Shown here: positions 18,147 through 39,000 of the stretch, piece after piece
Layout of the letters: every line of letters starts with the position of its first letter
How positions within the stretch are numbered: the stretch's first letter is position 1
NCBI GenBank assembly: GCA_965234725.1
Contig: CBDDUX010000035.1
Span: 2,357-54,787, forward strand
From: Thermoplasmatota archaeon
GTDB lineage: Archaea; Thermoplasmatota; Penumbrarchaeia; Penumbrarchaeales; Penumbrarchaeaceae
DNA length: 52,431 bases
Reading direction: 5' to 3'
Program-made: the position numbers and the translations under genes
The notes under the pieces: generated by a model
What the model was told of the DNA's origin: nothing
The model's database searches: none
The model's input: only the letters and a program-made list of their open reading frames with translations

Positions 18147-21100
18147 ATGCCCCAAGGAGTGGGAAATATGCGGTCGAGTTTTTCTTTACAAATAGTCGCC
18201 CTGACAATTACATTGCTGTTCGTCGTCCCGCTTTTCCCGGCTGGGATCCAGGCAAATGGGATCGCGGACATCAACCTTGCAGGGTCTCCTTCACGGACAA
18301 GGTCTGCAAATGCTTCGGAATGGACCATGTATATGGGAGAGACAACCCACCAGGGGTACTCCTCCTCTCAGATCCCCCTTGAGAGTGATACAAATATACT
18401 CTGGGGACAGAGGATAGATAATCTCCTTGCTTACACATCCCCTGTCATCTGGGATGGAGTGGTCTATGTCGGGACCGGTGACGGTTATATGAAGGGGTTC
18501 GACATCGACACTGGCAAGGAAGTTTGGAATGTTCACATTGGATCCTATAAGATCCAATCTGCCGCCACTATTGACAACGGTACAATCTATTTCGGGGCAA
18601 GCAATGGCCATCTTTACGGTTTCAGGATTGCTGATAAGGTAAAGACCAACGATGTGGACCTTTATGGGAGAGAGATCTTCAGCTCCCCTCTGGTCATTGG
18701 TGACAGAGCATACATTGGAGTCCTGGGTGCCTCCCTCAACAATCATAAGTTCCATGCCGTGGACCTCGGAACGGATTCAATTAACTGGTCCCTTATAATG
18801 GAGGAGGAAGAGAATTTCTTCGGATTCAAGGAGACGGCAGCCTATTCGAACGGAAGGATCTACATTGGAGACGGGAACGGAACCTTCTTCTGTCTCGACG
18901 AGAATGGCTTCTGGGATGGCAACGATGGCGCTTTCCTTTCAGAAACCAATACTTCAATGACTGCTCCGGATATCATCTGGAAGTGGGAGAATCCCATAGC
19001 GATATCCACGGATGCCATGTTGGCCGAGGGTAAGGTCTATTTTGGTATCGTTACAGGTGACCTCTACTGCCTTAATGCAGATACCGGATCGTTTCTCTGG
19101 AAAAAGGAGGTGGGCCGGGGAGAAAGGGGTTTTCAATCTTGCCCGTCTTATAATGACGGCAGGATCTACATCACAGCAAGGAACTATTACAACAACATGG
19201 ATGGTGCATCCGTCTACTGCCTGGATGCAACCACAGGCAGCCAGAAATGGAGGTTCAATATCACAGGACAGATGATCACTGAATCATCACCTGTAGTCGT
19301 CGACGGCGCCCTGGTCTTTGGTTCCAGGAACAGGAAGTTGTACTGCATATCCACCACCGAGGAGAACATTGCAGATGAGGATAGGATTTTATGGACGAAC
19401 AAGACCGGATTCCCCATCACATCAACCCCTGCAGTTGCCGATGGAAGGGTGTTCGTCACCACAGGACCGCTTACGACATATGGTAAATTATTCGCGATGG
19501 GATCACCAGATCCAAGAATAGACAAGGTCTGGATATCAGATATGGCACCCTACGAAGGAGAGAGGGTCACCATTGGAGCAGAGATATTGAACAATGCAAC
19601 AGTGAATTGCAGGGCCAAGGTCGAATTCACAGCATCCACCATAAACAACTCCAGGCAAGAGATCATCGGAATTGTGGAGGATGTATCGATCCCGTTCAAT
19701 GAAAGAACGATCGTTAATGTCAATTGGACAGTAAAGGGAGGTTTCGATTACTTCGCGGTATTTATCAAGGATGTCACTCCAAATGATAAGGACCTGCTCA
19801 ACAATTTCGATTCGGAGGACCTTGTGATACGATTGCCACTAACGGGGGCATGGACAACCTCGGGATCGGGACCTGAAAAGGGGGGTGGAGCAGGAGAGAG
19901 CCTGGAGAGCAATAGGAGCTTCTGGAACCTTAGCTTCTCCAAACCATGGGAAGGAGAACCTGAACCTATATTCTATGATAGTTTCACAGGGAACGGAACG
20001 ATCTCGGCATCAGGAGCGGCGATCTACCTTACTAACCCTGACGGCCAATTATCAGCATACAATACCATCCCCGGGACCGATGGAAGCCCTGACCTCTTCT
20101 GGAGTTACTCGAATTCCTCTGTTGCCATGATCGGCAGGCCGGTCATTCTCGCAGACAGAGAACAAACATTCCAGGGACCAAACCGAATAATCACCTACGG
20201 AGATGATGGGGCGATCTGGTCCTTCGATTGGTCTGGCTTCATGGATGGAACGAACGATGGACCCTTTACAGCCGAGACTGAAACCGGTTCCTCAGATGGC
20301 GATGTAGTTTGGAGAACTAATATCCCCTACGCTCCCTCAGAGCCATTGACCCTCTGCGGAGGCAACCTGATAGTAATATGTAATGATGGCAGAATGAGAA
20401 GCCTCGATGACGACACCGGAGAGATCCTCTGGTCAAACCCCATTACGGATGGGAGCAAAGTGGTATCTGATATGATCCAGCTCTTCATCGTAGGTAATGA
20501 CAGCGTGGAGGTAATGGACCCAAACACAGGATCCATAATTAGGACCATGTCAATGGACCTCCCCTTCGAGTCAACGATCTCTTCAGCTTCGATCACGGAT
20601 TCGGGGTTGCTTGTAACCGGTGGGAACATTACAGCACTCTATGATCTGGACCCATCAGATGGAGTGGATGAAGGCATCAAGGACAATTCAACCGATTCGG
20701 ACCTCATATGGCAGGTCACCTACATCCATGAGATGGATTGCCCTCCCGCCGTATCCCCGATGGGAATGATGATAGGGGTCGTTTCGGGGGGAAGGGTATG
20801 GTTCCACCATCTCTCCAATGGTACAGAGATCGTGAATCTCTCCCTTCCCGAGGCCTTGACAGGCAGGATCGTCTCTGGAGGGGATTCATTCTACCTCTTG
20901 ACTGGCACATCGCCATGGACCGTCAGATCGTATATGACAAATGAGTTAGGGGCCCTGGAACCAACCTGGACTCTGGAACTTGGATCAGAACCGAGAGGGG
21001 AGCTTGTGATCGAGGGGAATCATATGTACATCTCCCTTAGGTCCGGGGATGTTATTGCTATCGGAGCCAATAACAATCCTCCACAGGCCGTAATATCAGG

Positions 21101-22619
21101 TCCATTGGAGGGTATTATGGTATTCCCGGATGAATTGGTAACACTGGATGCAACCGGTTCTACTGACCTTGACGGGGACCCTCTAAGATATGTATGGACC
21201 ATCGAAGGTACATCGATTTCTCTGTATGAGGGACCTGATCCCGTAACAGAGGTGACCCTTCCTGGTGTAGGAAGAAAATCACTGGTTCTCCGGGTATATG
21301 ACGACATGAGGGCATACGGAGAGGCCTCTGTGAACATTACCGTACTGAAAAGGATCACCTCGCCTGACTTCGAGGATTTTCTGTATGATATCAATATACA
21401 CATGTCCTATGGAATATCGGAGTCTTCCGGTAGGGGACTGATTAATGTTTCCATACCCTCCGTACTTCCTGATAGAACAGGAGCGGTCTTCGTTTGCAAC
21501 CTGGAATTCATAACATGGCCCGTCTATGCTCAATACAGGTTCGAATGGGCCAATATTACCATCGGATATGGTGACAAGGAGTTCAAAGATAGGGTGAATG
21601 AGGAGAGAATGGGTATCTTCTACCTGGACAATGGCAAATGGAAGAGGGCCGAGGGATCGGGAGTGGACACCTTGAACAAGAAGGTATACGGAAATTTCTC
21701 ATCTCTCATGACCGGTCAATATGCGATAGGGATCCTGGATAACAACGCACCTGAACTAAGGCACAGGGAAACCGAGGACTACAGGTACAGGATGATAGAG
21801 TCCACTGATTACAAGTTCAGGGTAGAATACAGGGATGCGGACAATGACTTCCCAGTCAAAGTCATACTGATGATCGACAACAAGACCGAATACCAGTTGA
21901 CCGATGAGGGTTTCTCAACATCAGTAACAAGATGGACATTCCACTCCGTGGATGATATCGAACTGGAACCTGGAGACCATACCTATTATTTCGAGGCGGA
22001 TGATGGGAATTTCATCATCAGGTCTGGTTATTTCAACATCAATGTCGGAAATAACCCCCCGGTTGTCATCATTGTAGGACCCACCTCTATTATCAGAACG
22101 GGAGATGTGGCCCTATTCGATGGATCAGGTAGCTATGATCCTGACGGGAATGATATCAAATTCTCATGGGACTTTGACGACAGGGACGGAATTCAGAGGG
22201 AAGAACTGGATGAGAAGGTTGACCATATTTACATTGAGGAGGGTAACTATGTAGTCACTCTGACGGTCTCCGATGGCGTCGACGAGACCTCGAAGACCAT
22301 CCATATCACCGTCCTGGATGATGAAGAAGATAGTAGTATAGGAAGCGATATCCCTCCAACCATATGGATCGGTATAATCATTATCATGGGGATATTGATC
22401 ATAGCCATAGTAATATTCATCACCATCTCCAGAAGAGGACACGAGGAACAATCGGACATTCAACGGAAGTTCGAGGGAAGATGGTCCTGCCCTGAGTGTG
22501 GAACAAGGATTCCAAACGGTGTAGAAGAATGCCCCAAATGTGATTATCTCTATGACCCTGTGGACTTCGAGGACGAAGAAGAGTTCGAGGAGTTTGAGGA
22601 TGATGAGGATGAGATGTGA
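18147..22619 (+). CDS. Surface protein with two PQQ-like/BamB-type beta-propellers, CARDB-like and PKD domains, TM helix, cytoplasmic zinc ribbon and acidic tail
   Basis: Repeated SSPV..DG.VY.G..DG.LY.LD..TG...W blades. PKD motifs LDATGSTDLDGD.L.Y.W and FDGSGSYDPDG...WDFDD. TM IWIGIIIIMGILIIAIVIFITI, then CPECG...CPKCD. Confidence 0.88.
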   Translation: MPQGVGNMRSSFSLQIVALTITLLFVVPLFPAGIQANGIADINLAGSPSRTRSANASEWTMYMGETTHQGYSSSQIPLESDTNILWGQRIDNLLAYTSPVIWDGVVYVGTGDGYMKGFDIDTGKEVWNVHIGSYKIQSAATIDNGTIYFGASNGHLYGFRIADKVKTNDVDLYGREIFSSPLVIGDRAYIGVLGASLNNHKFHAVDLGTDSINWSLIMEEEENFFGFKETAAYSNGRIYIGDGNGTFFCLDENGFWDGNDGAFLSETNTSMTAPDIIWKWENPIAISTDAMLAEGKVYFGIVTGDLYCLNADTGSFLWKKEVGRGERGFQSCPSYNDGRIYITARNYYNNMDGASVYCLDATTGSQKWRFNITGQMITESSPVVVDGALVFGSRNRKLYCISTTEENIADEDRILWTNKTGFPITSTPAVADGRVFVTTGPLTTYGKLFAMGSPDPRIDKVWISDMAPYEGERVTIGAEILNNATVNCRAKVEFTASTINNSRQEIIGIVEDVSIPFNERTIVNVNWTVKGGFDYFAVFIKDVTPNDKDLLNNFDSEDLVIRLPLTGAWTTSGSGPEKGGGAGESLESNRSFWNLSFSKPWEGEPEPIFYDSFTGNGTISASGAAIYLTNPDGQLSAYNTIPGTDGSPDLFWSYSNSSVAMIGRPVILADREQTFQGPNRIITYGDDGAIWSFDWSGFMDGTNDGPFTAETETGSSDGDVVWRTNIPYAPSEPLTLCGGNLIVICNDGRMRSLDDDTGEILWSNPITDGSKVVSDMIQLFIVGNDSVEVMDPNTGSIIRTMSMDLPFESTISSASITDSGLLVTGGNITALYDLDPSDGVDEGIKDNSTDSDLIWQVTYIHEMDCPPAVSPMGMMIGVVSGGRVWFHHLSNGTEIVNLSLPEALTGRIVSGGDSFYLLTGTSPWTVRSYMTNELGALEPTWTLELGSEPRGELVIEGNHMYISLRSGDVIAIGANNNPPQAVISGPLEGIMVFPDELVTLDATGSTDLDGDPLRYVWTIEGTSISLYEGPDPVTEVTLPGVGRKSLVLRVYDDMRAYGEASVNITVLKRITSPDFEDFLYDINIHMSYGISESSGRGLINVSIPSVLPDRTGAVFVCNLEFITWPVYAQYRFEWANITIGYGDKEFKDRVNEERMGIFYLDNGKWKRAEGSGVDTLNKKVYGNFSSLMTGQYAIGILDNNAPELRHRETEDYRYRMIESTDYKFRVEYRDADNDFPVKVILMIDNKTEYQLTDEGFSTSVTRWTFHSVDDIELEPGDHTYYFEADDGNFIIRSGYFNINVGNNPPVVIIVGPTSIIRTGDVALFDGSGSYDPDGNDIKFSWDFDDRDGIQREELDEKVDHIYIEEGNYVVTLTVSDGVDETSKTIHITVLDDEEDSSIGSDIPPTIWIGIIIIMGILIIAIVIFITISRRGHEEQSDIQRKFEGRWSCPECGTRIPNGVEECPKCDYLYDPVDFEDEEEFEEFEDDEDEM

Positions 22620-23536: not shown

Positions 23537-24306
23537 TGGAAAAGAGCTTCATTACAGCCTTAGAGAAAGGAAGCCTTTCCGAAGCAGCTGATATTTTAAA
23601 GAGGATCGAGAAGGATGTCCCGAGGACCAGGTTCCTTTTTCTCGAGGGTCTTCTTCTTGAAAAGGAAGGTGAACTGGAGGAGGCCTCTAAGAAATTCGAC
23701 ATGGCCCTTGTCCTTCACCTATCAGACAATTCGTTATGGAAAGCCAAGGCCAGGGTCCTGATGGAACTTGGAAAGGTGGACATGGCAAAAAGAGCGGTCG
23801 AAAGGGCTTGCAGGTTGAAACCGGATGACCATGATGGTCATCTCCTGTTATCGGAAATATTGTACAGGATGAAGGACTATCCCAGAGCGGAAAAGGAAAT
23901 TGATATGTCCCTTGAACTTGGGGGCAGGTCCGCCGCTGCCCTTACCTTGAAAGGCATACTGATCTCTATCCTGAAACAGGATTATAGGTCCGCCCTCACC
24001 TACTTCGATTCTGCAATTGATACGGATGAGGGATACGGCAGGGCTTGGACCAACAGGGGAATTGCATTGAAGGAGATCGGGGACAGGGACGGTTCGATCT
24101 ATTCTTTCCAGAAGGGTCTGATCATTGATCCAGAGGATTCCAATGCTAAAAAGATGCTGATCATATTGGGACAGGCATCATTCGTTGAGAAGATGATAGG
24201 AAGGGGGCCCAAGCTTAACAAGAGATCTGGTCAAGATGAAAAAGGGAAAGAAACCAAGGATGAACTGGAAGAACTTGATGAGTGGGAGGATTGGGGGGGT
24301 CAATAG
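23536..24306 (+). CDS. TPR-repeat protein
   Basis: Several TPRs, e.g. LWKAKARVLMELGK...A..L.P and AWTNRGIALKEIGD...IIDP. Acidic Trp-containing C-terminus. Confidence 0.9.
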   Translation: MEKSFITALEKGSLSEAADILKRIEKDVPRTRFLFLEGLLLEKEGELEEASKKFDMALVLHLSDNSLWKAKARVLMELGKVDMAKRAVERACRLKPDDHDGHLLLSEILYRMKDYPRAEKEIDMSLELGGRSAAALTLKGILISILKQDYRSALTYFDSAIDTDEGYGRAWTNRGIALKEIGDRDGSIYSFQKGLIIDPEDSNAKKMLIILGQASFVEKMIGRGPKLNKRSGQDEKGKETKDELEELDEWEDWGGQ

Positions 24307-24956
24307 GGGTAATCCTGATCGACCAGGTCTGCAATTCCTCGCATAATAGTGTCTGTGACCTCCCGTAGAACCTCCTTGTCATCATCTTTCCCTGCGAGAT
24401 CCTTGAATATAAGAGGTTTTCCGATCTTGATCGTCACTATTTTCTTCATCTTTGGCATATGATCTCCTTTGGGCATAAGGAGATGAGTTCCCCAGATCCC
24501 GACGGGGACCACCGGTACACCTGTCCAAAGTGCAAGTTTCGCCACACCTATCTTCCCTTTTGTTAAATGGAATCCATCACCTCTTGTACCTTCGGGGTAG
24601 ATGATGAGATTATGTCCTTTCCTGATGTATTCCTCGCCCTGTCTTAACGATTCGTCCCCTGTCCCCTGACCTCTGTCAACAGGAACGGCCTGGAATCTCC
24701 AGGCAAGGAACCTGAAGGGTGGCTTTCCCTGGAACCAGTGCTTGCGGTCCGCAAAGAAATGGGTCTTTCGGTGTGTTGACATAACGATAGCGGGCATCAC
24801 TGCGAACTCGTCAAGATGGCTATTGTGGTTTACAGCAAAGATGTAGGGTGTATCCTTGTTAAGGTTCTCCCTGCCTGTCTCTTTTTTGATCATCCTCCAC
24901 CTGAGAAATGGTAGAAGGAATACCCTCTCGGGAAGTAGATAGAACCCTATCGCCAT
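24300..24956 (-). CDS. plsC: Lysophospholipid acyltransferase (PlsC / 1-acyl-sn-glycerol-3-phosphate acyltransferase family)
   Basis: NHNSHLD (HX4D), FFAD, VPVDRG, IYPEGTR and VPVVPVGI acyltransferase blocks. Confidence 0.88.
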   Translation of the reverse strand: MAIGFYLLPERVFLLPFLRWRMIKKETGRENLNKDTPYIFAVNHNSHLDEFAVMPAIVMSTHRKTHFFADRKHWFQGKPPFRFLAWRFQAVPVDRGQGTGDESLRQGEEYIRKGHNLIIYPEGTRGDGFHLTKGKIGVAKLALWTGVPVVPVGIWGTHLLMPKGDHMPKMKKIVTIKIGKPLIFKDLAGKDDDKEVLREVTDTIMRGIADLVDQDYPY

Positions 24957-25187
24957 GATCGTTCAGAAGTATGAATGGATAGATATATTTGTCGTCGGTC
25001 GACCATAATTTAACTTGGTGATCCGCAGGTCAATCCATATCAATAAATATGTGAAGAACCACAATAAGCCAGGAAAACAATACAATTTCACAATTACATA
25101 CCATTGCCATTTTATATATAAGAACGTCTTTGATACCAGTAGGGGTTTCATAGAGAAATCGTTCCAATCGATCAAGAGGTGTTCAGT

Positions 25188-28100
25188 ATGAGTAATTTAG
25201 GAAAAATGGTGGGAGTTCTACTCATAGTGGTCTCCCTGGCAATAGCAGGTATCGGAGCCGCTTTCATGTTCTATATTGCACCCAATGGTGCAGAAGAGGC
25301 AACGTTCCCCACGGATTTTGATGAGCATAACCTGTACGGTGGTTTCCTCGACAGATTGAACACGACCTCAGGCCAGGTCGAGCACGTCGAGTTTACCGTC
25401 GACAGACGGATCCAGGCAGTCGATGAACTCAGTGGTGGAAAGATCAAACTCGATGAGACCATCACTGGAATTGAGAACGGCACCCAGGTCCCGGTACCTG
25501 AGCTGGCAAAGCACAACATCTACAATATAGATGAGAGCTCGATCCAGCTGTATCGTTACGAGGACCTCGTTTCGGGAGATATAGTGGAGTACACCGAGGA
25601 TGACAATGTCCAGTGGATCTTCCCTCATCCGGTTGACAAGGATAAGGACTACAATGTGTTCAACATGAACATTTTGAACTTTTCCGACGCCAAGTTCCTC
25701 GGAGAAGAGGAGAGGTTCGGTGTCAATTGCTATGTTTATAAAGGAGAGGAGATCGAATATGAGATCCCGATCCCTGCCTCCACTGCTGCTAAGCTTGGAA
25801 GCCTAGCGGGAGGTTCTAAAATGATGCTAACCCTCTGGGAGAAGGCTTGGGTCCATCCTCTGACCGGATCGATCATCGATTATGCCAAGGAGATCAATAC
25901 ATATCTCTACCTACCGGAACTTCCAAGTGTCCCGGAAATTAAATATCCGTCAAATCTAAACTCAACTTCCGGATTCGATGGAGACCTCATTCTCTTCGAT
26001 CAGGCAACTGCATCGTTCATGACCTTCAACGGCATCAAAGCAGAACGATACATCGAGGTCATTTCGGCAAGTGATTACAATTTGACAGCAAACGAAACTG
26101 TGACCGTAACAACGGCGGAAGGTGCATCCCTGGCACTTCTTGATTCCAGCATCCAGGTAATGTTCGATGCAAGGGACGGAACTCATACCGGACCCGGAAG
26201 GAGCGGTCATTACCTCTTCTCACCGCAGGGTGCAGGCCAGATGAACTACTCGATCTGGGATGACGGATTCCAGATGGGGGTCAATGCCGAATATATCGGG
26301 CAGGAAACTTCAGCATTCCCAGGATTGGTGGCAAATATCTACCATGTATATGTTGAGAATGGAACTTATGCTGCTGGAGGATTCGCCACACTTGACATGA
26401 CCTACTGGGTAGAGGAAATGTCCGGTATCGTTCTCGATGTGAACAAGAAGATGACCGTCTGGAGACCTCAGGATGCTAGGAGACTCCCAACTGACACCTC
26501 CATGATCAACAAGACTGTCACTCTAAACACCACTGTGACCTCTTACAATCCTATTGATGGAAGCGATTCCACCATGGACATATATGTTGAGCAGATGATC
26601 AACTGTTCCGGGTATACCAATGATACATTCGGAGTTGCAAAGATCACCGAGACCGTGACCAAATATCTGCCGGATGGTACGATGATGGCACCACCCATGG
26701 TGACCCAGTTCGGAGTAGATGCTTACACCATGGACTATATCTTCGTTGACAGCTGGTCAACCATGGACCGGGATGGTCAGTTCACATTCCCACTGGGACT
26801 TCTCAATGATACTGGTGGAGTGATAGAGATGTTCACCATGTACAATTCAGACCTGGGAATGTCGTTCCCAACAGTTCTCATTGAAGAGACCACCATGAAC
26901 GGCTTGGATGTGGCAAAGTATCAGATGGCTCTTCCAAACATTAATCTGACCTATGCCCAGGTTGTTGCAACCCTCGGACAGGACCCGGGACTTCCGGGTG
27001 CAACCGGAACCTATGAGTGTGTTTTTGAGTACATTGTCGATATCGATACCGGGACCATTGTGGATATCACAAGAGATGTCACTATCAAACTCATACCTCC
27101 GACTTATGACTATTTGTGGGACAACCTTGATTCCACCACTGTGTTAAAAGGAGAGATGATGGGGGAGAACGTCACCGTGACCCAGACAATGATGGGAATG
27201 GATTCAGGAGATGGTACCACTCTGATCAATGTCTCAACAATATACAAATATGACAACGGTTCAGACTTCCTTCCATCCACTTCCACAGAGGTTTTCATCA
27301 ACACCACCTCCCATGAGATTCTTTATCCCAATGGGACCGGAATGGGGGTTTACTTCCTCTTCCCAAAATCACCCACGGAATCAGTATATCCAATGATCAA
27401 CGATTTCGGAGGGATAATGTTTTCAGGAGGCGCTGTGAAAGGAGCGGAAACGGATACAACCGTAGATTATAATTTTTCTAGCACTCAAGCAATTGATGCG
27501 GCTGTTTTCGGAATGCCTGGAGTTAACGTCAATATGACAATGGATCTGAACTACCTTGTTGACAAGTTCACGGGGTATGTTCTGGATGTGATGGGGGTTA
27601 TCTTACTTGAGAACAACTCCATGAATTTTACCCAAGAGTCGACGTTCCTTGCTCAGGACGATCCGGTGGAGACTGCCATGTTCAACGCTGTGATGGGGTG
27701 GTCCATCATTGGCACTCCGAAAAAAGTTTTGGATATATCCATGGAGCTTTATGACATGGAAGCACAGGCAGCGGTCATGAAGGCAAAGGCAACATCGATG
27801 CTATTCAAGATAGCCGATGGAGTGGAACCCGCAATGGAGCTTGAGCTCAGGTTCAATGCAACCACTAAAGCGACACTTCTTGCAACTGCAACTGCAACTG
27901 TGGCCCAGCTGGAACAGCTCCCTGCCCTCATAGGTGCTCACATGCTGAAGGACCTCCTTGCATCCAAGGAGAACATGGTCCTCTATGTTTACTACAAGAA
28001 AGTGGATGAGGACAAGGACCTAAAGGAATTCGTGGATGTGGATGGGACTGTAAAGTACTGGGCTGACATCGCCAAGGACAAGGATGCCGAGTACGAGAAG

Positions 28101-28211
28101 TTCGCAGTGGTCATCCCAACGATCATGTATGTATTTGCGGGAATCGGTATCATTGTGGGAATTGTATTGATATTGGCTCCGGGAAGAAAGACAGAGGAAG
28201 CTGAAGAGTAG
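25188..28211 (+). CDS. DUF3068 (PorA-like) multi-domain membrane protein with N- and C-terminal TM helices
   Basis: Four repeats of the ..F.FP......Y......A...GEE...G...Y.Y......WV.P.TG.I.D pattern. Start placed after the GAGGTG RBS; the ORF track starts at 25179. Confidence 0.7.
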   Translation: MSNLGKMVGVLLIVVSLAIAGIGAAFMFYIAPNGAEEATFPTDFDEHNLYGGFLDRLNTTSGQVEHVEFTVDRRIQAVDELSGGKIKLDETITGIENGTQVPVPELAKHNIYNIDESSIQLYRYEDLVSGDIVEYTEDDNVQWIFPHPVDKDKDYNVFNMNILNFSDAKFLGEEERFGVNCYVYKGEEIEYEIPIPASTAAKLGSLAGGSKMMLTLWEKAWVHPLTGSIIDYAKEINTYLYLPELPSVPEIKYPSNLNSTSGFDGDLILFDQATASFMTFNGIKAERYIEVISASDYNLTANETVTVTTAEGASLALLDSSIQVMFDARDGTHTGPGRSGHYLFSPQGAGQMNYSIWDDGFQMGVNAEYIGQETSAFPGLVANIYHVYVENGTYAAGGFATLDMTYWVEEMSGIVLDVNKKMTVWRPQDARRLPTDTSMINKTVTLNTTVTSYNPIDGSDSTMDIYVEQMINCSGYTNDTFGVAKITETVTKYLPDGTMMAPPMVTQFGVDAYTMDYIFVDSWSTMDRDGQFTFPLGLLNDTGGVIEMFTMYNSDLGMSFPTVLIEETTMNGLDVAKYQMALPNINLTYAQVVATLGQDPGLPGATGTYECVFEYIVDIDTGTIVDITRDVTIKLIPPTYDYLWDNLDSTTVLKGEMMGENVTVTQTMMGMDSGDGTTLINVSTIYKYDNGSDFLPSTSTEVFINTTSHEILYPNGTGMGVYFLFPKSPTESVYPMINDFGGIMFSGGAVKGAETDTTVDYNFSSTQAIDAAVFGMPGVNVNMTMDLNYLVDKFTGYVLDVMGVILLENNSMNFTQESTFLAQDDPVETAMFNAVMGWSIIGTPKKVLDISMELYDMEAQAAVMKAKATSMLFKIADGVEPAMELELRFNATTKATLLATATATVAQLEQLPALIGAHMLKDLLASKENMVLYVYYKKVDEDKDLKEFVDVDGTVKYWADIAKDKDAEYEKFAVVIPTIMYVFAGIGIIVGIVLILAPGRKTEEAEE

Positions 28212-29313: not shown

Positions 29314-32028
29314 TCACCTCATGGGTCCCGGGCCATATGGAGCTCCCGGGGGCTGGCCGTAGGGCCTCATGGGAACCTGTTGAGGGCCTGTGCCCGGTCT
29401 ATATCCGGGAGGTGCCTGGGGACGAGTAGGACCACGGGACCTCAATACCACAGCAATGACCAGGACCAGAAGAACAAGGAATCCCACAATCGAGATGCCC
29501 AGCACAACCTGTGAGCTGAGGAACTCATCGGATGTCTTCTCTTCGGATACCGTGATCGTAAGCTTTATCCTCACACTGTCCGAACCATCACGGGGATCGG
29601 TAACAGTGACCGTGATATTGTATATCCTTGGGGTCAGATTGCCAGGGATCAGGAAATCTCCAGAATAGGTATCATCTTCACCGGGAGAAAGGGAGATGTC
29701 CCCCATATCGAACTCTGAGAGGTCAACCATGACATCAAGGTCGTCCTGGTCCTCATCCAATGCAACCACATCGATGCTGACCCTACTACCCTCGGAGAAT
29801 TCGGTGGTCGCCTGACCACTTTCATCTGTTACATTATAGGTAATGATCTCGGGAGCGGTATTCGCTTTTATCACTCTCAGAGCGAAGGAAGAGGTTCCCT
29901 GAAGCCCCGTGGAATCCTCGGCGATGACATCGATCTTTCCCTTCAAACCTTCGGATACTGACCTGCCCACTGTGAATTGGGCGGTCCAGGTCCCATCATT
30001 TCTGGAAGTGTCCGGGGAGATGCCGTCATCCTTCATATAAAGGAACGAAGGACCTTTCACTGGTGTCAGGTCGATCCAAACCTTATCAACATCATCGTTT
30101 AGGTCCTCCACACTGGCTGTCACAACTACAGGGGTCTCACCATCGTTCTCTACCTCATCTGGCAGAGGACTGACTCCAAGGATCGTTGGGGCAACCGGTG
30201 GAATAATGACATCCACCCACGTCTTCGCTGTTGTCTCGTGTCCTACATCATCCACTGCGGTGATCTCCACCTGATAGATGGATATCGCCACGGATGGGGC
30301 GACCGTGAACTCAACAGAATAATTCCCATCACCGTCGAAGATATCTCCGGATGTTCCGTCGTCATACATCCTGACCTCATCCTCTCCACCGATGTTGGTC
30401 AGGTCCACGTATACCTTGTCCAGATCATCCTCAGGGTCCTCGACTATCGCCCAGATCACTGAGGTCGTCACCCCGTCATTGGGAACACCAAAGGGGTAGG
30501 CTCCTTTATCAATGATCTCAGGGGCCTTGGTCAACTGGGCGGAATCAAGAACGGTCAAAGTGACATTGTCAAATGCCTGGCCGCCCCTGGTGTCCTTTGC
30601 AGTGATCTTGAAGATGTACTCTCCAATGGAGATGGATCCCTTGATCTGGTAGGAGAATATTCCATCACCCGAAATATCATCCCCGTTGGTCCCATCGTCA
30701 TACATCTTCTGTGTGGATGTCTTTCCGATCGAGGTCAGGTCAGCCTCAACGGTACGAATATTTCCATCGGGGTCCTCGACCACGGATGCAATGATCGGTT
30801 GGACCGATCCGTCATCAGGGACGGTTTCCGGGTCGATCATGGAGGCCTCTATGACCGGGGGGTGGTTGAGGAACCCCACAGTTCGAACCTCGAATTTCGA
30901 AGAGGCGCCGATCTTGTCGAAATGGGCGGGTGAACTGACGGTAACATTTCCAGTCCCGTTCAATGTGAAGCTGATATCCTGACCGGGATATTCCCTGTCA
31001 GGAGATCTGATCTTCCATGAGACCTCCTCAAAGGTCCTTGGTCCGGTAATGGTCAGATCGGTGAGGGACCCACCGGAAGTGATCATGTAATCCTCCGGAA
31101 CAATAAGTCTGGCCACCGCGTTCCTTACAGTCACACCTGTCATTACGGAAGGAGCCCAGTAGGTGACATTGACAGAGACCTCGAACTCCTTTCCAGCATC
31201 CACCTCATCAGGGAATTCAAGTTCATCAAGGGTCCAGGGGGCTGCGCAAACACCGACCCGATGTGTTTCGATATTACCTCCCCCTCTCTCATAGATGTTC
31301 CACATCTTGTCAAAATCCCCTCTTGGAATTTGAATACCCTTGCCACCTTTGTAGCCGATACCACTGGGTACAGGATCGTGGACTATCAGCATGCCATTCC
31401 CCAGATTCGAATCATAGCCGACTACCAACCTCCAGACCTTTTCAAGGGCCGCAAGGTCCTCGGGAGTGACCTGAGGATCGGGTGGCTGGGGGTTGTTCGG
31501 GTCAGGGGGTTGCGGATTGGGATTCAATTCAGGGGGTATGTCCAGATACATGTAGCAGAGCACGGGATGATCCTCGGATATCGCCTGATAGATATCTGCG
31601 AACCTCATCTCAGCCCTGTCATCGTTATCATTCCAATCGTAAGTGAAACCACCATATCCCAGAACCCTTTCCTTGTATCCCTTCTGGGTAACAGGATAGT
31701 TTCCGGAATAGTGTGCCGCCCTCATCAGTTCATCCGGAGTTGCGGGGCCGGAACCGAGTATGCCTTTTGTGATGTTCCTGATATCCTGCTGCATCACGTA
31801 GGGTCCATGGAAGTCGAATATCATGGAGAGACCGGCCTCTCCGGTCAGGTCATCTCCTGCTCTAGGATGATAAGGTACCTGACTGCTGAGATTGACCCTT
31901 GAGGGCAGTGCTCTCGAGGGATACCCTTCGTTCTCAGGTAGGAGAAGGACCGTCATGGCAGATCCCAGGAGGATGAGCAAGGCAGCTACGGTCCCGATGA
32001 TTGCTGTTCTATTGGAGACAAAAGACAT
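29314..32028 (-). CDS. Membrane-anchored surface protein: degenerate C39-like peptidase domain, several DDG..GD...GDG.Y(S/T) ('choice-of-anchor X'-like) Ig domains, TM helix and Pro/Gly/Gln tail
   Basis: Start MSFVSNR after a GGTGA RBS. VPYH...GEAGLSMIFDFHG...Q and LVVGYD...VHDP fit the C39-like fold. Repeats MYDDGTNGDDISGDGIFS, MYDDGTSGDIFDGDGNYS and MKDDGISPDTSRNDGTWT. Confidence 0.75.
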   Translation of the reverse strand: MSFVSNRTAIIGTVAALLILLGSAMTVLLLPENEGYPSRALPSRVNLSSQVPYHPRAGDDLTGEAGLSMIFDFHGPYVMQQDIRNITKGILGSGPATPDELMRAAHYSGNYPVTQKGYKERVLGYGGFTYDWNDNDDRAEMRFADIYQAISEDHPVLCYMYLDIPPELNPNPQPPDPNNPQPPDPQVTPEDLAALEKVWRLVVGYDSNLGNGMLIVHDPVPSGIGYKGGKGIQIPRGDFDKMWNIYERGGGNIETHRVGVCAAPWTLDELEFPDEVDAGKEFEVSVNVTYWAPSVMTGVTVRNAVARLIVPEDYMITSGGSLTDLTITGPRTFEEVSWKIRSPDREYPGQDISFTLNGTGNVTVSSPAHFDKIGASSKFEVRTVGFLNHPPVIEASMIDPETVPDDGSVQPIIASVVEDPDGNIRTVEADLTSIGKTSTQKMYDDGTNGDDISGDGIFSYQIKGSISIGEYIFKITAKDTRGGQAFDNVTLTVLDSAQLTKAPEIIDKGAYPFGVPNDGVTTSVIWAIVEDPEDDLDKVYVDLTNIGGEDEVRMYDDGTSGDIFDGDGNYSVEFTVAPSVAISIYQVEITAVDDVGHETTAKTWVDVIIPPVAPTILGVSPLPDEVENDGETPVVVTASVEDLNDDVDKVWIDLTPVKGPSFLYMKDDGISPDTSRNDGTWTAQFTVGRSVSEGLKGKIDVIAEDSTGLQGTSSFALRVIKANTAPEIITYNVTDESGQATTEFSEGSRVSIDVVALDEDQDDLDVMVDLSEFDMGDISLSPGEDDTYSGDFLIPGNLTPRIYNITVTVTDPRDGSDSVRIKLTITVSEEKTSDEFLSSQVVLGISIVGFLVLLVLVIAVVLRSRGPTRPQAPPGYRPGTGPQQVPMRPYGQPPGAPYGPGPMR

Positions 32029-32172
32029 ATTCTCACCTTGTGTAGGCTGGGCAATTACCTCCATCACCCAGAATGGAAGGTCATTGATGGTGGTTATTAT
32101 AATGTTTATGGAAAGGAGGACGCAACCGCACCGAGTGGAAACCGTAAAGTCCTCAATATGAGATACACCCTC

Positions 32173-33627
32173 ATGGCAGATGAGATAGGAACAAGGAAGG
32201 AAAGGGACACTTTGGGCGAAAGGGACCTTCCCGAGGATGTCCTCTACGGGATACAGACCCTCAGAGCATCCGAGAACTTCCCGGTATCGAACCTCCCGAA
32301 TCACCCGTACCTCATCGATGCATACGCTTCCATCAAGGAAGCTGCGGCCTTGGCAAACATGGAGGTGGGTTGGCTCGACCCGGAGATCGGAAAGCTCATA
32401 GTGGAAGCTGCGAAAGAGGTCCGCCAGGGAGGTTTCAGGGAACATTTCATCGTGGATAGGTTCCAGGCAGGAGCCGGGACCTCCACCAATATGAACATCA
32501 ACGAAGTGATAGCCAACAGAGCTCTTGAACTGAAAGGCGAGAAGAAGGGATCCTATGGCATCATATCACCTAACGACCATGTGAACATGGCCCAATCTAC
32601 CAATGACACCTTTCCAACGGCCATGCAGATATCCGTTCACATGATGACAGGGGAACTTATAACGGAGGTGAGGTCCCTGGCCATCTCTTTCAATAGAAAG
32701 GGAGATGAGTTCAAGAACGTCCTCAAAACTGGAAGGACACACCTCCAGGATGCAATGCCGGTCACCCTCGGTGGAGAGTTCAAAGCATATGGTTCGGCCC
32801 TTGATAGGGCGGCAGACGAGATAGAACGAAGGAACAGGATGCTTCTGGATCTGCCACTGGGAGGGACAGCCACAGGGACCGGCATAAACACTCACCCCGA
32901 ATACCGTGAGAGGGTAATATCGCATCTATCAAGGATATGGGGGCTGGACCTCACCGCAAATCCGTCATCTTTCGAAGCAATGCAATCCACTATCAGGATC
33001 GTATCTGTTTCTTCGACCTACAAAGAACTAGCCATCGAACTGGGAAGGATCTCCAATGACCTCAGACTTCTGTCCTCAGGGCCAAATAGCGGTTTCTCGG
33101 AGATCACACTCCCGGCCGTCCAACCAGGGTCATCCATAATGCCCGGGAAGGTCAATCCTGTCCTTCCAGAATGCATGAACATGATCTGCTTCGTTGTAAT
33201 GGGAAACGACGTTGCGATAACCACCGCCGCAGGTGCGGGCCAGCTAGAGCTCAATGTGATGATGCCGATCATGGGAAATCTCATACTCAGATCAGCAGAA
33301 TATTTTGTGAATTTCCTCCCGATCTTTGGTGAAAAGTGTATAGACGGGATCAGTGTGGATGCGGAAAGCCTTAACAAGAGGGCGATGGCAAATCCTATCC
33401 TTGCCACTTTGTTGAACAGAAAGCTGGGTTATCTCAAAGCCGCTGAGGTTGCAAAGGAGGCAATGGAAAGTAAAAGGTCAGTGGTGGATATTGTACTGGA
33501 GAAGGGTTATTTGACCAGAGAAGAAGCTGATGAGATGTTCAACAGGGCATCCCTTGTAGGGTTGGTGAGGGGCATATCAGAGAATGGGGAGGAAAAGAGA
33601 GAGGATCCAGACAAAAAGAGCAGTTGA
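32173..33627 (+). CDS. aspA: Aspartate ammonia-lyase / class II fumarase superfamily enzyme (AspA-like)
   Basis: RKERDTLG, YGIQTLRA.ENF, QAGAGTS.NMN.NE, QSTND, GRTHLQDA, GSSIMPGKVNP and GQLELNVM. These resemble AspA more than FumC, but fumarase activity is not excluded. Confidence 0.8.
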   Translation: MADEIGTRKERDTLGERDLPEDVLYGIQTLRASENFPVSNLPNHPYLIDAYASIKEAAALANMEVGWLDPEIGKLIVEAAKEVRQGGFREHFIVDRFQAGAGTSTNMNINEVIANRALELKGEKKGSYGIISPNDHVNMAQSTNDTFPTAMQISVHMMTGELITEVRSLAISFNRKGDEFKNVLKTGRTHLQDAMPVTLGGEFKAYGSALDRAADEIERRNRMLLDLPLGGTATGTGINTHPEYRERVISHLSRIWGLDLTANPSSFEAMQSTIRIVSVSSTYKELAIELGRISNDLRLLSSGPNSGFSEITLPAVQPGSSIMPGKVNPVLPECMNMICFVVMGNDVAITTAAGAGQLELNVMMPIMGNLILRSAEYFVNFLPIFGEKCIDGISVDAESLNKRAMANPILATLLNRKLGYLKAAEVAKEAMESKRSVVDIVLEKGYLTREEADEMFNRASLVGLVRGISENGEEKREDPDKKSS

Positions 33628-34470: not shown

Positions 34471-35196
34471 TCATATATTCCTTCTGCTGCCTGGACCCTT
34501 TTTTACCGGTTTACTATTTTTCCTTATTTCTTCTACCTCCTTTTCCTTTAGAGAAGCGAAGGTGGAAAATCCTCTTGTGAATGTGGTAAGAAGGCCTCCG
34601 ATCAACATCAGGACCATTACCAGTTCCAGTGGGATCAGCTCTCTGCCCAATCCGATATCTATACCTCTGGTATTAAAAAAACCAACGAGAACGAACTGGA
34701 AGGGGAGTACGAACATCATCAGGACCATCCTGTCCGCCCTGCCCATTACCCCACTGTAGTTCCTATCGGCACCGACGGCCTGGGCCTGGGTCCCCATATA
34801 AGATGAGAGCAGGACCGCTGTAACCGAGATCAGACCGAAGGTGGTATCGCAGTAGGGTGAAAAAGCGATACCGGTCAAGAGGACCACATCCGAAAGCCTG
34901 TCGAATGTATGGTCCAGGAAATCTCCCACCTTGGAAGAGGTCCCTGCCAGTCTGGCAACCCTCCCATCCAGTGTGTCAGATATGGAATTAAGACCTATGA
35001 AGACAAGTCCCCCCAGCAAAGCCAGGTCCCATCTGTCAGCCGGCAGCCACTTCCCTGAGAGGGCCAGTATCAATCCTCCGATCAATGCAAAAAGGAAGGA
35101 CATTGTGGAGATCAAATTGGGGTCCACCCTCAAGAACAATCTGGCAAGGGGATCGAAGAAAAGGTCCAGCCTCTGTCTATAGCCTTCTAGAACCAT
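34471..35196 (-). CDS. CDP-alcohol phosphatidyltransferase (archaetidyl-inositol/glycerol phosphate synthase type)
   Basis: PNLIS and DTLDGRVAR...SSKVGDFLDHTFDRLSD signature. Start overlaps the upstream kinase stop. Confidence 0.93.
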   Translation of the reverse strand: MVLEGYRQRLDLFFDPLARLFLRVDPNLISTMSFLFALIGGLILALSGKWLPADRWDLALLGGLVFIGLNSISDTLDGRVARLAGTSSKVGDFLDHTFDRLSDVVLLTGIAFSPYCDTTFGLISVTAVLLSSYMGTQAQAVGADRNYSGVMGRADRMVLMMFVLPFQFVLVGFFNTRGIDIGLGRELIPLELVMVLMLIGGLLTTFTRGFSTFASLKEKEVEEIRKNSKPVKKGPGSRRNI

Positions 35197-35789
35197 TTCG
35201 CCCATTCCTCCAACCAATCTACTTTTCCAGGTCTGTAATGGAGAATAGTGCTTAATCTTTTCTCCCTCTCAGCCTCCATCATTTCAATTATCCAAGCTGC
35301 AATATCCTCTGGCGAGAGTCCTGTGACATCCCTCTCGACGACCACCCTTCCAACCTTGCCAACGCCTGTCCGATCACCATTACCATTTACCCTGTCCTCC
35401 TCTTCCAAAGCCTTTGTCAGAAGATATCCCAGAGCCTCTGCCTCGATATTCTCCTTCACCTTCTCAACAGAATATCCCCTCTCATTCAATCTTTTACTCA
35501 GAAGGGAAGGGTCCAGTCTCATGATGATCATCAGGTCCGAGGGAGCCAGATAGGAAAGGTGTCCCTCGATGACAGCATCTCCCTTGATTCTTCCTACCAG
35601 GTGGGTCAAACCTTCCCTCACAACTGAGAGATCAACGATGTACTCGTCGTTGGTGATGTCGTATTCCTCGTAAAGTCCCATCTCTTTGATGGTTTCCTTC
35701 TCCGATATCACCTCGATCCCACGGTCCCTCAGGAGTGCCGCCGTGGTTGTCTTTCCCACCCCGGGAGTCCCGCAAAGTGAGACTATCAT
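35187..35789 (-). CDS. Atypical adenylate kinase (AK6/Fap7 family)
   Basis: CGTPGVGKTT, IEGHLS, LR.DP..L.KRL.ERGYS.EKVKENIEAE and VDW. Confidence 0.88.
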   Translation of the reverse strand: MIVSLCGTPGVGKTTTAALLRDRGIEVISEKETIKEMGLYEEYDITNDEYIVDLSVVREGLTHLVGRIKGDAVIEGHLSYLAPSDLMIIMRLDPSLLSKRLNERGYSVEKVKENIEAEALGYLLTKALEEEDRVNGNGDRTGVGKVGRVVVERDVTGLSPEDIAAWIIEMMEAEREKRLSTILHYRPGKVDWLEEWAKWF

Positions 35790-36013
35790 GGGCAACGATA
35801 TCTCAGGGGCAGATAAAAAGTGAGCGGTCCTGCATCCATTCCATCCATTCCCTTTGACAAATTACTTTGAAAAGAATAGGTAATCTGTGATAATTCTAGT
35901 GTGAATACTAAAATAGGTTCATATGTGCTGATTCCCTACATGGACTTGTGTGGGAAACATTTAAGTCCGTATCCTGGATTCAAAACCGGGAACAACGTTG
36001 CAGAGGACATATC

Positions 36014-39000
36014 ATGAAATGTAGGAGATATGCGGGGAAGGCAAGGTCTTTTCTTTTACTGACGATGATCCTCGTACAGGTCCTGGCTGCAATTCCTCTC
36101 GGAACAGGTGGAGGGCCAACAAGGGGTCCAGGAACCGATATCCAGGTAAGAGGGATAACCTCACACAGCAATGGAGAGATCGTAGGGTTCCTTCAGCAGG
36201 TTTTCGAAGCTGATGTCGCCAACTCCGGCTCGGATCCCTACCAGGGAAATGTAACTGTTACCCTCGCCATAATGTTTCCAGGAAACGAAACTGAGAACAT
36301 GACAGAGGTCCACAAGCAGACCGTGGACCTCGGAAGGACCCTCGAAGAAGTGGGGAACGAGACCACCGTTGAATTCTCTCCATGGCTTCCATCTGCCGAA
36401 GGATATTACAGGATCAGGGTATCTTCCAATGCCTTTGATGATAATCCGGAAAACGATACCGTTCAGATCATGATAAGGGTTCTCCTATCCCATATTGAAG
36501 GTGTGAAGGTCTCCTTTGCCCCCGGAAGTCCTTCCAACCAGAAGATCAAGAGAGGGGATAATACCACGATGTACGGTTACGAACCTTTTGTATTCGAGGT
36601 GGAGAACACCGGGATCTTCAACGATACGTTCAATATCACCATAGATTCCGCATGGGTAATGACCCCATGGGATAACATGACCCGGGAGCTTGCACCAGGT
36701 GCCCACGACCTTATAGTTGTCAATGTTGAGGTTCCCGGGGATATTGATCCTCTTTCCTTTGATGTTTTGGTCTTCACCGCCATATCCCAGAGGAACGAAT
36801 CGATAAGGGATTCCCTGAGCGCAAATATCTCCATCCCCCTCAAGGAGGATGTGGAGGTGACTGTTGCCTCCCCCGACCCTCAATTGGGTTATCCTGGAGG
36901 CCCCCCTGCGGAATTCGTATTCCGGATAAGGAACACAGGTGATTGGGCCACATACTATTCACTGAAGGTCAGTTCAAGACCCTCCTCATGGAGGTCAGAG
37001 TTCAAGCCCACATCAATGACTACAATGGAGACAGGAAACATCTCCCGGGATAACTACATCGTCGTTCATGCCAGGATCTGGGTCCCACCGCTGAACTATG
37101 ACACCATGGATAAGGACAGGACAGAGGAGGGGCAGATAGGGGCACTTATCCTTACGGCAACAAGCCCTAACAACGTCACTGATTCAGCGGAAGGTACGGT
37201 TGATGTGGGTCTTGTCCATACGGTTCAAATGGAGATCTCGCCCAAGAAGTTGGTGGTCAACTTCACCGAGGAATCGAAGAATTCACCTCAGTTCCTCAAC
37301 ATAAGCGTCAGGGTCAGGTCGATCAACAACAACAGGGCCGACCCCAGTGCCAAGATGGATGTCAACCTGACCACACCGGAAGGACCGAACGGTGTACGAT
37401 TCAAACCCATTTGGCAGATGGGGTTCGACAGCAACCTATCGACAATGTGGTCTGCAACACCTCCGGTAGGTAAGGTCAAGCTCAGATCAGGTGATTGGAG
37501 TGTCGGCCAGCATATCAGGATAATCGTTCCGCCCTTCCCGATCCAAGGTACCGCTGTCATCAACATAGTGGCCATCCCCGAACTGATCGAGGGAAGGGAC
37601 GGCCTCACGATCTCCGCCAGAAAGGATGCGGAGGTCCATGTGGGTGGTTACCTGAACTACTCGATCGTTCCTCCCAGGACCGAGTTCTTCAATGATCCCG
37701 AGATCAGTGAGAACACCGATAAGAACGGAAATGGGGTTGAGGACTGGAGAGAAGCCTATCCGGGCCAGGTCCTTCTCTTGCCGTTCAATATCACAAACCA
37801 CGGTAATGGTTGGGACGGATACAATACCACAGGCAGCCCGATCCCTGTGCAGCCCTCGACCCTGCTTCCTAACGATTGGAAAATCTCCTTCCCTGCAAGG
37901 ACTGTCACCCTTATCCCCTATAGATTCGATCCAAACTCTCCATCGCATTCCACTCTTGTCTGGGTTACTGTTACCATACCCGATGGAGCCCCCATCGGGG
38001 AGAGCGCCATCATCAAGATAGGGGCCTCATCCCTCATCGAGACAGATCTAAGAGGCGGGGATCCGCGCTATCAGTGGGCCGAGATAGAGGTTTTCGTCAT
38101 ACAGGGTTTCGCAGTGGACCTGGAACCAGAGGAGAACAGGAAATCCGCTGAACCCGGGGAAACCCTTGTTTACAGATTGAATGTGACCAATATCGGCAAT
38201 GGCGTCGATATCATCAAATTCCGGATCGAGACCCAGGACCTGATGGGCTGGAACATCTCCTTCGACGTGGATGAATACAATCTCACCCCCAGGGAGAAAC
38301 GTCCTGTCGTTGTCAGGATCACACCGAGCCTTGATGCCGTCAGGGACCAGGAGCTTGCATTGAAGGTAAGGGCCCAATCACAGAGGTCCGTCATTGCCTT
38401 TGACGAGGTCTGGTTGAACACTACGGTCAATTACAGGGGTGGGGTGGAGATCCAGCTTCTTGAAACACCATCACTTCAATGGAAATATCCCGGAGAGGTA
38501 GCCACATACTTGGTGGAGGTGTTCAACCGGGGAAACGGTAATGATACCATCGATCTTGTCATTGACCCTGGAAATAACGCATGGGAAGCTGAGATCGCAG
38601 TAGGGGAGAACAGAGGAATGGGGGCATCGATCAATCTTGAAAGAGGAGGCTCTAAGAAGGTTAGGGTCAATATAACCCTCCCCTCTCTTTCATCTGTATC
38701 CAATGAGGAGGAGCTCTTCGAGAAGGGCATACAAGCCTCCAACAAGGTATCTTCGATCCTTACTGCCAATCCAAAGGGATATCCATCGATATCCTCCATG
38801 ATCAACCTCACCGTTGGAGTTTTAACAGAATATGGAGCCTCCCTGATGTTAAAACCAGGGGATGTAATTGACAAGGTTGTACTTGTGGGGGAGAAGGTAA
38901 CCTATCAGTTCATACTCGAGAACGGCGGGAACGGACCGGACAGGATTATGGCCCTCCCCTCTTCCCCCATCAATTCCATAAGACATCTCTCATGGACACA

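Follow-up and report, generated by a model that had tools for sequence, protein, structure and literature searches.

The closest described relatives of the protein treated here are LmcA and PgfA of Mycobacteriales (MSMEG_0317, Rv0227c, NCgl2760; PDB 7n3v). The protein itself is a four-module DUF3068/PorA protein encoded in a 52,431-nucleotide stretch of a Thermoplasmatota archaeon (contig CBDDUX010000035.1 of assembly GCA_965234725.1), and this whole stretch is called the window below. In the accessible parts of PMC8972800, LmcA is described as a closed barrel with a CD36-like fold enclosing lipid-sized cavities. Its first strand, beta1, pairs with its last strand, beta13. The helix alpha14, which comes after beta13 and just ahead of the transmembrane (TM) helix, touches the N-terminal region. 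PgfA is a trehalose monomycolate-binding protein that works together with MmpL3, according to the accessible parts of PMC9678360 and PMC13492138. The same text of PMC9678360 (eLife) calls the family "exclusively found in actinobacteria". The literature searched on DUF3068, PF11271, LmcA and PgfA deals with Mycobacteriales only (most subscription journals and supplements lay outside the search). It contains neither an archaeal or multi-barrel member nor a description of nested DUF3068/CD36-like barrels or of recursive nesting in this family or fold. The CD36 papers returned are unrelated. In databases, members are annotated as 'porin PorA family protein' or 'DUF3068 domain-containing protein'.

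The archaeal gene lies at 25188..28211 of the window on the + strand and encodes about 1007 amino acids (aa). The open reading frame (ORF) in the ORF list is 25179..28211 (+), with a GTG start, 1010 aa and the stop codon at 28209-28211. The ATG at 25188, with which the GTG at 25179 is in frame, agrees with the orthologue consensus start MxxxxKIxGV, and the closest orthologue has 1007 aa. Residues are numbered here on the translation of 25179-28208 (+). Hydrophobic stretches are seen only at residues ~10-35 and ~975-1002, corresponding to one TM helix at each terminus.

An earlier note, made from the letters of the window, described four successive modules that end in the same hairpin motif and four strand-plus-helix segments stacked ahead of the last TM helix. 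Both are present in the translation. The hairpins are at residues 224-234 (nucleotide 25848), 410-420 (26406), 619-629 (27033) and 793-803 (27555), and the C-terminal segments are at 817-837, 849-871, 884-904 and 933-969. All nine peptide motifs quoted there are found at the positions given. The note also held that no module is followed directly by a closing strand and helix. This holds for the outer modules but not for module 4, where a strand predicted by AlphaFold2 (AF2) at 817-825 begins five residues after the strand 801-812. A closing unit directly adjoining module 4 is what the N4-C4 step of the note's own scheme needs.

Predicted models and comparative sequence analysis together make it highly probable that the modules are inserted recursively, in the order N1-N2-N3-N4-C4-C3-C2-C1. 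Both ends of this membrane protein would lie in the cytoplasm, and its large extracellular part would consist of four beta-barrels of the LmcA/PgfA type, a CD36-related fold. In a single-barrel member the order is TM, beta1-beta12 (ending in the WVEPxTG hairpin), the closing strand beta13, alpha14 and TM, with beta13 between beta12 and beta1. Given the beta1-beta13 pairing of LmcA and the position of its alpha14 before the TM helix, the split point in the archaeal modules should be the beta12-beta13 loop. Every further barrel would enter this loop of the preceding barrel. The chain would go out through four open barrels, N1 to N4, and come back through the closing units C4 to C1, so that each barrel junction is crossed twice, by an outgoing linker and a returning helix. 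Each barrel would be closed by a strand and helix arriving only after all inner barrels have been synthesised. The parts of the chain are as follows.

25206..25283, + strand: TM1, N-terminal membrane helix (residues ~10-35); hydropathy, AF2 helix 5-39
25284..25913, + strand: N1, putative strands beta1-beta12 of the outermost barrel (36-245), hairpin 224-234; Pfam profile 2-233 of 297, E 2.4e-11; jackhmmer h16-255; predicted folding of C1 depends on it
25914..26483, + strand: N2, putative second barrel without closing strand (246-435), hairpin 410-420; Pfam profile 29-230, E 1e-6; C2 docks to it in trans in the model
26484..27113, + strand: N3, putative third barrel without closing strand (436-645), hairpin 619-629; Pfam profile 151-230, E 2.5e-6; hhalign N2~N3 96.4%
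27114..27626, + strand: N4, putative innermost barrel (646-816), hairpin 793-803; hhalign N3~N4 84.5%, E 7e-6; jackhmmer 657-1007 = h71-325; no Pfam match alone
27627..27722, + strand: C4, predicted closing strand 817-825 and helix 829-844, contiguous with N4; AF2 DSSP; kept in the N1-deleted model
27723..27827, + strand: C3, predicted strand 848-857 and helix 859-879, given to barrel 3 by elimination; AF2 DSSP
27828..27968, + strand: C2, predicted strand 886-892 and helices 894-912 and 914-929, predicted to close barrel 2; closing-strand profile 884-911, E 6e-9; docked between N2 264-273 and 417-429
27969..28103, + strand: C1, predicted strand 933-941 and helix from 958 running into TM2, predicted to close barrel 1; closing-strand profile 937-972, E 5e-8; strand lost on N1 deletion
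28104..28184, + strand: TM2, C-terminal membrane helix (~976-1002), followed by a short charged tail; hydropathy, AF2 helix 958-999

The AF2 alignment has 26 rows, the query and 25 of the 29 homologues of nearly the same length; P0010, P0025, P0026 and P0030 were left out as fragments. The full-length model has a mean predicted local distance difference test score (pLDDT) of 86.2 and a predicted template modelling score (pTM) of 0.53. It consists of four all-beta modules and then the four strand-plus-helix units listed above, which are joined by linkers of 3-6 residues.

The assignment of the outermost closing unit comes from an in-silico deletion of N1. AF2 of residues 246-1010, with the same homologues, gives a mean pLDDT of 84.1. 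The units C4, C3 and C2 retain their strands and helices, and the pLDDT blocks of 816-925 are 74-94, much like in the full model. The strand 933-941 is gone, and the pLDDT of 936-965 is 39-41, against 80-90 in the full-length model. The loss of strand and confidence at C1 alone indicates that C1, and only C1, needs N1. Closure of barrel 1 by C1 is indirectly supported by this model.

The second barrel was modelled by complementation in trans, with N2 (246-444) and C2 (880-931) as two chains and an alignment that we built. All three runs give an interface score (ipSAE) of 0.86, and none of three controls scores above 0.00. The docking mark applied here is reached by 58 of 80 solved complexes and by 2 of 110 mismatched pairs. 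Contacts agree to at least 94% among the runs, and the pLDDT of the partner is at least 82. The closest residue pairs of N2 and C2 are 270:888, 271:887, 423:890, 425:888 and 424:889. The C2 strand 886-893 sits between 264-273, the first strand (beta1) of N2, and 417-429, its last strand (beta12). The C2 helix is in contact with 412-417 and with residues 248-254 of the N1-N2 linker. As modelled, barrel 2 is closed in the way of LmcA, with the last strand between beta12 and beta1 and the following helix on the N-terminal linker.

Because N4 and C4 are contiguous, C2 docks to N2 and C1 depends on N1, only C3 remains for N3, and the N3-C3 pairing is thereby assigned by elimination. Profile coordinates, the deletion model and the docking indicate nested insertion over two or more levels, with a host interrupted by a guest that is itself interrupted; the third level follows by elimination. 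The earlier note expected AlphaFold to pair the first module with the last segment and so on inwards. As far as the models go, that expectation is borne out for C1, C2 and C4, and C3 falls to N3 by the elimination just described. The order of the whole scheme which it proposed is supported by the N1 deletion, the docking, the AF2 layout and the scaling of tails described below.

Membership in the family is clear from the whole protein, which matches Pfam PF11271 (PorA/DUF3068) in three stretches at 88.3 bits, against a gathering cut-off of 29.5 (E 7.4e-25). Scanned one at a time, residues 1-245, 246-435 and 436-645 match positions 2-233, 29-230 and 151-230 of the 297 profile positions (E 2.4e-11, 1e-6 and 2.5e-6). 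No contiguous stretch covers the full profile (~2-297), as the modules stop at 230-233. With the profile ending there and its closing part moved to the C-terminus, the protein is a PF11271 member by homology, with a discontinuous domain. Profile-profile comparison by hhalign, with slices of the 26-sequence orthologue alignment, gives probabilities of 96.6% for N1~N2, 96.4% for N2~N3 and 84.5% for N3~N4 (E 7e-6). Non-neighbouring modules are less similar (42%, 36% and 2%). The modules are homologous, as had been supposed, with neighbours linked in a chain that includes module 4 through N3~N4. A hidden Markov model (HMM) of the closing strand and helix, made from single-module relatives, detects two of the four tail units, at 884-911 (E 6e-9) and 937-972 (E 5e-8).

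In a Foldseek search of PDB with the predicted model, the top match is LmcA of Mycobacterium smegmatis (7n3v/7shw; E 3.7e-8, probability 1.00, template modelling (TM) score by target 0.57, 235 columns). The modelled fold is a closed beta-barrel of LmcA type. LIMP-2 (4q4b/4f7b) also has probability 1.00, but its TM score by target is only 0.31 and its root-mean-square deviation (rmsd) is about 12 A. Many remaining matches have an rmsd of more than 40 A and are meaningless. The archaeal protein shares with LmcA and PgfA the PF11271 signature and the order of membrane anchor, barrel ending in a hairpin, closing strand, helix and TM helix, and the closing strand lies between the first and last strands. 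LmcA differs in having a single barrel, whereas the archaeal protein would have four nested ones. A further difference is that a profile search of PDB sequences with the alignment of the archaeal protein returned only chance-level antibody chains (E 0.058 or higher), and LmcA is not among the matches.

CD36 proteins have a single barrel with an apical helical bundle, and CD36 is a fatty-acid transporter. In topology, with two terminal TM helices, the archaeal protein resembles the family of CD36, LIMP-2 and SR-B; in fold, the LIMP-2 match described above gives a mixed picture. The CD36 profile PF01130 gives no match to the archaeal protein at E up to 10. By language-model features, where all matches score below 0.9, one of the nearest neighbours (rank 4, score 0.85, below the reliable range) is a cluster of 893-aa Thermoplasmatota proteins, 68% of which have the Pfam CD36 domain PF01130. 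This is a lead that some archaeal relatives may be recognisable as CD36 by sequence.

The beta12-beta13 loop of LmcA should be membrane-distal, and each guest would then sit atop its host in the same orientation. We infer that the barrels stack head to tail as a linear tower projecting from the membrane. The linkers between the barrels are among the most conserved stretches, with L248, P252, Y256 and P257, then R434, R435, L436 and P437, and finally P640, P641 and Y643 invariant.

Relatives with different numbers of modules carry the second line of evidence. A whole-library phmmer search finds 25 relatives at E <= 0.001, from 114 to 1910 aa long. Every close relative of the protein comes from an uncultured Thermoplasmatales or Thermoplasmatota genome. 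Among 401 sampled Thermoplasmatota genomes, 65 carry PF11271 (high-quality genomes: 40 of 262; genera: 32 of 162), a finding that contradicts the restriction to actinobacteria in the accessible text of PMC9678360. The distribution of PF11271 across the phylum is patchy: one family has it in all 14 genomes and another in 17 of 23, and three others have it in none of 48, 36 and 53. Three-module proteins, about 740-820 aa long, are the prevailing form where the genome measures about 1.1-2.0 Mb.

In frames with several PF11271 matches, the early matches end at ~228-236, the last long one ends at ~283-296, and extra short matches to 223-297 follow. A jackhmmer model seeded from a 333-aa single-barrel archaeal protein (beta13 at 262-271, alpha14 at 272-294, TM2 at 295-314) matches 84 of 93 collected sequences, and 71 proteins have at least two module matches. 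In these proteins, beta13 lies beyond the end of 139 of 177 outer-module matches and is covered by 60 of 71 innermost matches. Single-module relatives carry exactly one strand-plus-helix closing unit. The outcome named by the earlier note as refuting, four complete tandem domains with an independent C-terminal domain, is not what is seen, since most outer matches stop ahead of the closing strand.

Hairpins were counted with an HMM, as a regular expression gave false and missed matches. A hairpin match is present in 79 proteins, of which 64 are complete, with TM helices at both ends; at 90% identity they fall into 58 clusters, at 40% into 17. Even when iterated, on whole proteins or on tails, the closing-strand HMM usually sees only one or two units per relative, and tail length, from the last hairpin to TM2, was therefore used for counting. 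The tails of the 64 complete proteins are as follows.

1 hairpin: 5 proteins, tail 36-81 aa, median 51
2 hairpins: 8 proteins, tail 72-98 aa, median 87
3 hairpins: 17 proteins, tail 115-341 aa, median 121
4 hairpins: 29 proteins, tail 153-178 aa, median 170
5 hairpins: 2 proteins, tail 495 aa, median 495
6 hairpins: 3 proteins, tail 230-235 aa, median 235

Homologues with one, two and three copies, which were to be looked for, exist along with those of four and six modules, and their tails lengthen with module number. Tail length rises by 47.7 aa per module over all 64 proteins (r 0.66). In seven of them (P0022, P0024, P0037, L044, P0043, L041 and L053) the hairpin HMM counts too few, and a missing fourth, middle, first or sixth hairpin was judged by eye or with a relaxed E-value. 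With these dropped, the remaining 57 give 39.7 aa per module, an intercept of 5.5 and r 0.98. This scaling of sequence lengths is read most simply as one closing unit for each barrel.

Several relatives have features of their own. A paralogue in the same genome (L003, 616-2250 on the - strand of contig C100 of G000) has 544 aa, two hairpins and an 87-aa tail with two strand-plus-helix-like units by eye, and its architecture resembles a nest of two levels. The profile match of its first module begins only at about position 118. Genomes of about 1.0-1.4 Mb encode two-hairpin proteins of 987 and 1118 aa (L049 860-3820 and L048 1088-4441, both on the - strand). In these proteins the second module is 560-660 aa long with large insertions, and the tail measures just about 87 aa, in which two units can be made out by eye. 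The six-module relatives are L044 (P0037, 1910-1953 aa), L045/P0041 (1555 aa) and P0038 (1607 aa). In P0037 the HMM detects five hairpins, a divergent sixth is recognisable by eye, and some 290 aa rich in Pro, Arg and Glu extend beyond TM2. In P0038 and P0041 an acidic N-terminal extension precedes TM1, and the close similarity among the four middle modules suggests a recent expansion. The recent duplicates of six-module proteins would not tell a mirror order from a parallel one, as the expanded modules are placed symmetrically and both orders predict the same pattern.

That the modules resemble each other as a chain, N1~N2~N3~N4, would fit a protein that grew at its tip, the innermost barrel being inserted into itself. 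For this, a complete copy would have to enter the loop, or two partial duplications would have to match.

Judging from its N-x-S/T sequons, the protein is probably N-glycosylated and extracellular. Residues 36-975 contain 24 of them, against 7.3 +/- 2.4 in 2000 shuffles, whose maximum is 18 and none of which reaches 24. This excess fits an archaeal surface glycoprotein with both termini in the cytoplasm.

Apart from a PlsC-type acyltransferase, the neighbours of the gene are housekeeping genes or encode large surface proteins.

24300..24956, - strand: PlsC-type acyltransferase, divergent, 222 nt upstream, a possible functional partner; PF01553 E 2.9e-22; TIGR00530 4.8e-17, below the NCBIfam cut-off
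18147-22619, + strand: 1490-aa ORF with PQQ-like beta-propeller and PKD domains
29314-32445, - strand: 1043-aa predicted surface protein with several ~100-aa repeats with DDGT.GD..GDG-like motifs, a C-terminal TM helix and a Pro/Gly-rich tail; the sole family signal is a weak PKD-like match, E 1.5e-4
34471-35217, - strand: CDP-alcohol phosphatidyltransferase (lipid head-group synthesis), about 6 kb downstream
35948-40573, + strand: very large ORF, 1541 aa

The acyltransferase translation shows the HX4D and PEGTRG motifs. A module-1 orthologue is found in 19 of 37 genomes of the class, and in 18 of these 19 an acyltransferase orthologue adjoins it divergently. The 18 genomes with the pair belong to one taxonomic family and seven genera, and the exception belongs to another family. 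At 14 named loci, the acyltransferase is upstream in 13, a tetratricopeptide repeat (TPR) gene is present in 12 and mtnA in 9.

The cavities of LmcA, the lipid trafficking of PgfA and the fatty-acid carriage of CD36 favour, by analogy, a function in lipid handling. It can tentatively be speculated that the protein binds lipids or other hydrophobic molecules, or carries or conducts them between the cytoplasmic membrane and a more distant site, with a reach set by the number of barrels (1 to 6). Two points weigh against this function. The TPR, acyltransferase, barrel and mtnA genes form a syntenic block, so that the adjacency of the acyltransferase is weak evidence of coupling. The genome has four MMPL genes, and no MMPL/RND partner is encoded on the contig of the barrel gene or on that of the paralogue. 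The score for the PgfA equivalog NF053601 of NCBIfam, 74.4 bits, is below the cut-off of 160, which makes the protein a relative of PgfA and no orthologue. The archaeal host lacks the mycolate envelope of the hosts of LmcA and PgfA, and the barrel gene has no linked MmpL gene.

The main rival to lipid handling, though a somewhat unlikely one, is that the nested tower is structural. As a glycosylated spacer or pillar it could hold an outer layer at a set distance or anchor it, or it could act as an adhesin, and the barrels would be rigid bricks. A ruler would be expected to differ stepwise between lineages, as the module number does from 1 to 6. The strong sequon enrichment, the large surface proteins encoded nearby and the absence of a linked transporter gene also fit this explanation. 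It is opposed by the fact that the only studied relatives, LmcA, PgfA and CD36, are lipid-binding or lipid-trafficking proteins, and by the conservation of the PlsC-type acyltransferase as divergent neighbour in 18 of 19 genomes.

A more specific form of the lipid-handling function is doubtful; the earlier note had named a lipid conduit as a possibility. The cavities of the barrels could be aligned into one hydrophobic path, and the protein would then serve as a lipid conduit made of one chain, adjustable in length (1 to 6 barrels in different Thermoplasmatota), and work with the PlsC-type acyltransferase. It would move acyl-bearing or other lipids from the cytoplasmic membrane to an outer layer, a partner cell or the environment. 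LetB/MCE and AsmA/TamB-like proteins, which are lipid transporters of the envelope, consist of stacked rings of subunits or have one continuous groove. A possible analogy is that repeated modules set the span of a lipid path; these systems are not nested barrels in a single chain, and no relation to them in sequence or fold was found, although no test was aimed at one. If the archaeal protein is such a conduit, a new class of lipid transporters spanning the envelope would have arisen by self-insertion at the tip.

As for the recursive insertion itself, several observations count against it or limit it. Scanned alone, neither module 4 (646-820) nor the C-terminal 190 aa (821-1010) matches PF11271; only chance-level matches to 3HBOH appear (E 0.028-0.06), and no family is recognised in either by Pfam and NCBIfam. 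The closing-strand HMM misses C4 and C3. In the jackhmmer comparison, 19 of 177 outer matches extend through beta13 and 4 of 71 innermost ones stop short. One 26-row alignment underlies all predictions, and a pTM of 0.53-0.59 leaves the mutual arrangement of the barrels uncertain. The AF2 evidence consists of confidence and secondary structure. In the docking, C2 was the one tail unit offered to N2, and close cousins of a true partner also pass. A pass can also stem from likeness to solved single-barrel structures (LmcA, LIMP-2). The N3-C3 pairing, and with it the mirror order of the two middle units, depends on elimination and on short linkers.

This leaves some room for tail units that complement the barrels in another order, such as C3 in N2 and C2 in N3, or that complement those of a neighbouring molecule in a domain-swapped oligomer. 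The pairs tested are limited to N2-C2 and to the dependence of C1 on N1, and related partners can pass docking. We consider this quite improbable, as the docking of N2 and C2 is confident with agreeing runs, the contiguity of N4 and C4 and the need of C1 for N1 leave C3 for N3, and the monomer model is confident throughout. Linkers of 3-6 residues would also be too short to bypass a barrel, which argues against a crossed order. Hardly tenable is a series of four tandem barrels, complete or stably open, with an independent C-terminal alpha/beta (beta-alpha-beta-alpha) domain or coiled stalk and no complementation: the alternating strands and helices of the tail could in principle make a Rossmann-like sheet, the four C units show no significant likeness to each other by hhalign (best pair C3~C2, E 0.0096) and Pfam is blank over the last 190 aa, but N1 deletion unfolds C1 alone with C2-C4 intact, C2 docks to N2 between beta1 and beta12 with 0.86 against 0.00 for the best control, the closing strand of the family is missing from the outer modules, tails gain ~40 aa per module among relatives, and single-module relatives have exactly one tail unit.

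A precedent for recursive nesting exists in SI3 of the cyanobacterial RNA polymerase beta' subunit. According to the accessible parts of PMC13114784 (Protein Sci 2026), SI3 consists of recursively nested homologous hybrid-motif domains, with six levels in Prochlorococcus rpoC2, and domain insertions surveyed there are mostly single-level. SI3, as described in those parts, and the archaeal protein are alike in that homologous small beta domains are inserted within each other over several levels. SI3 differs in its fold, its cytoplasmic enzyme lineage and its branching nest. The nest proposed for the archaeal protein is linear, extracellular and anchored in the membrane at both ends, and the guest is always in the same loop.

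The protein is a new architectural variant of a known family, with a rare topology. A linear nest of four homologous barrels, and of up to six in relatives, inserted in the same loop each time, would be a rare and clean natural case. It would mean that a large closed barrel tolerates a closing strand hundreds of residues away. It would also pose a folding problem, as N1 would be unable to close before residue ~940 is made. The LmcA/PgfA/CD36-like fold, previously studied only in Mycobacteriales, is now extended to archaea. The natural length variants are a series in which the function of these proteins as a ruler or a conduit at the archaeal cell surface may be tested.

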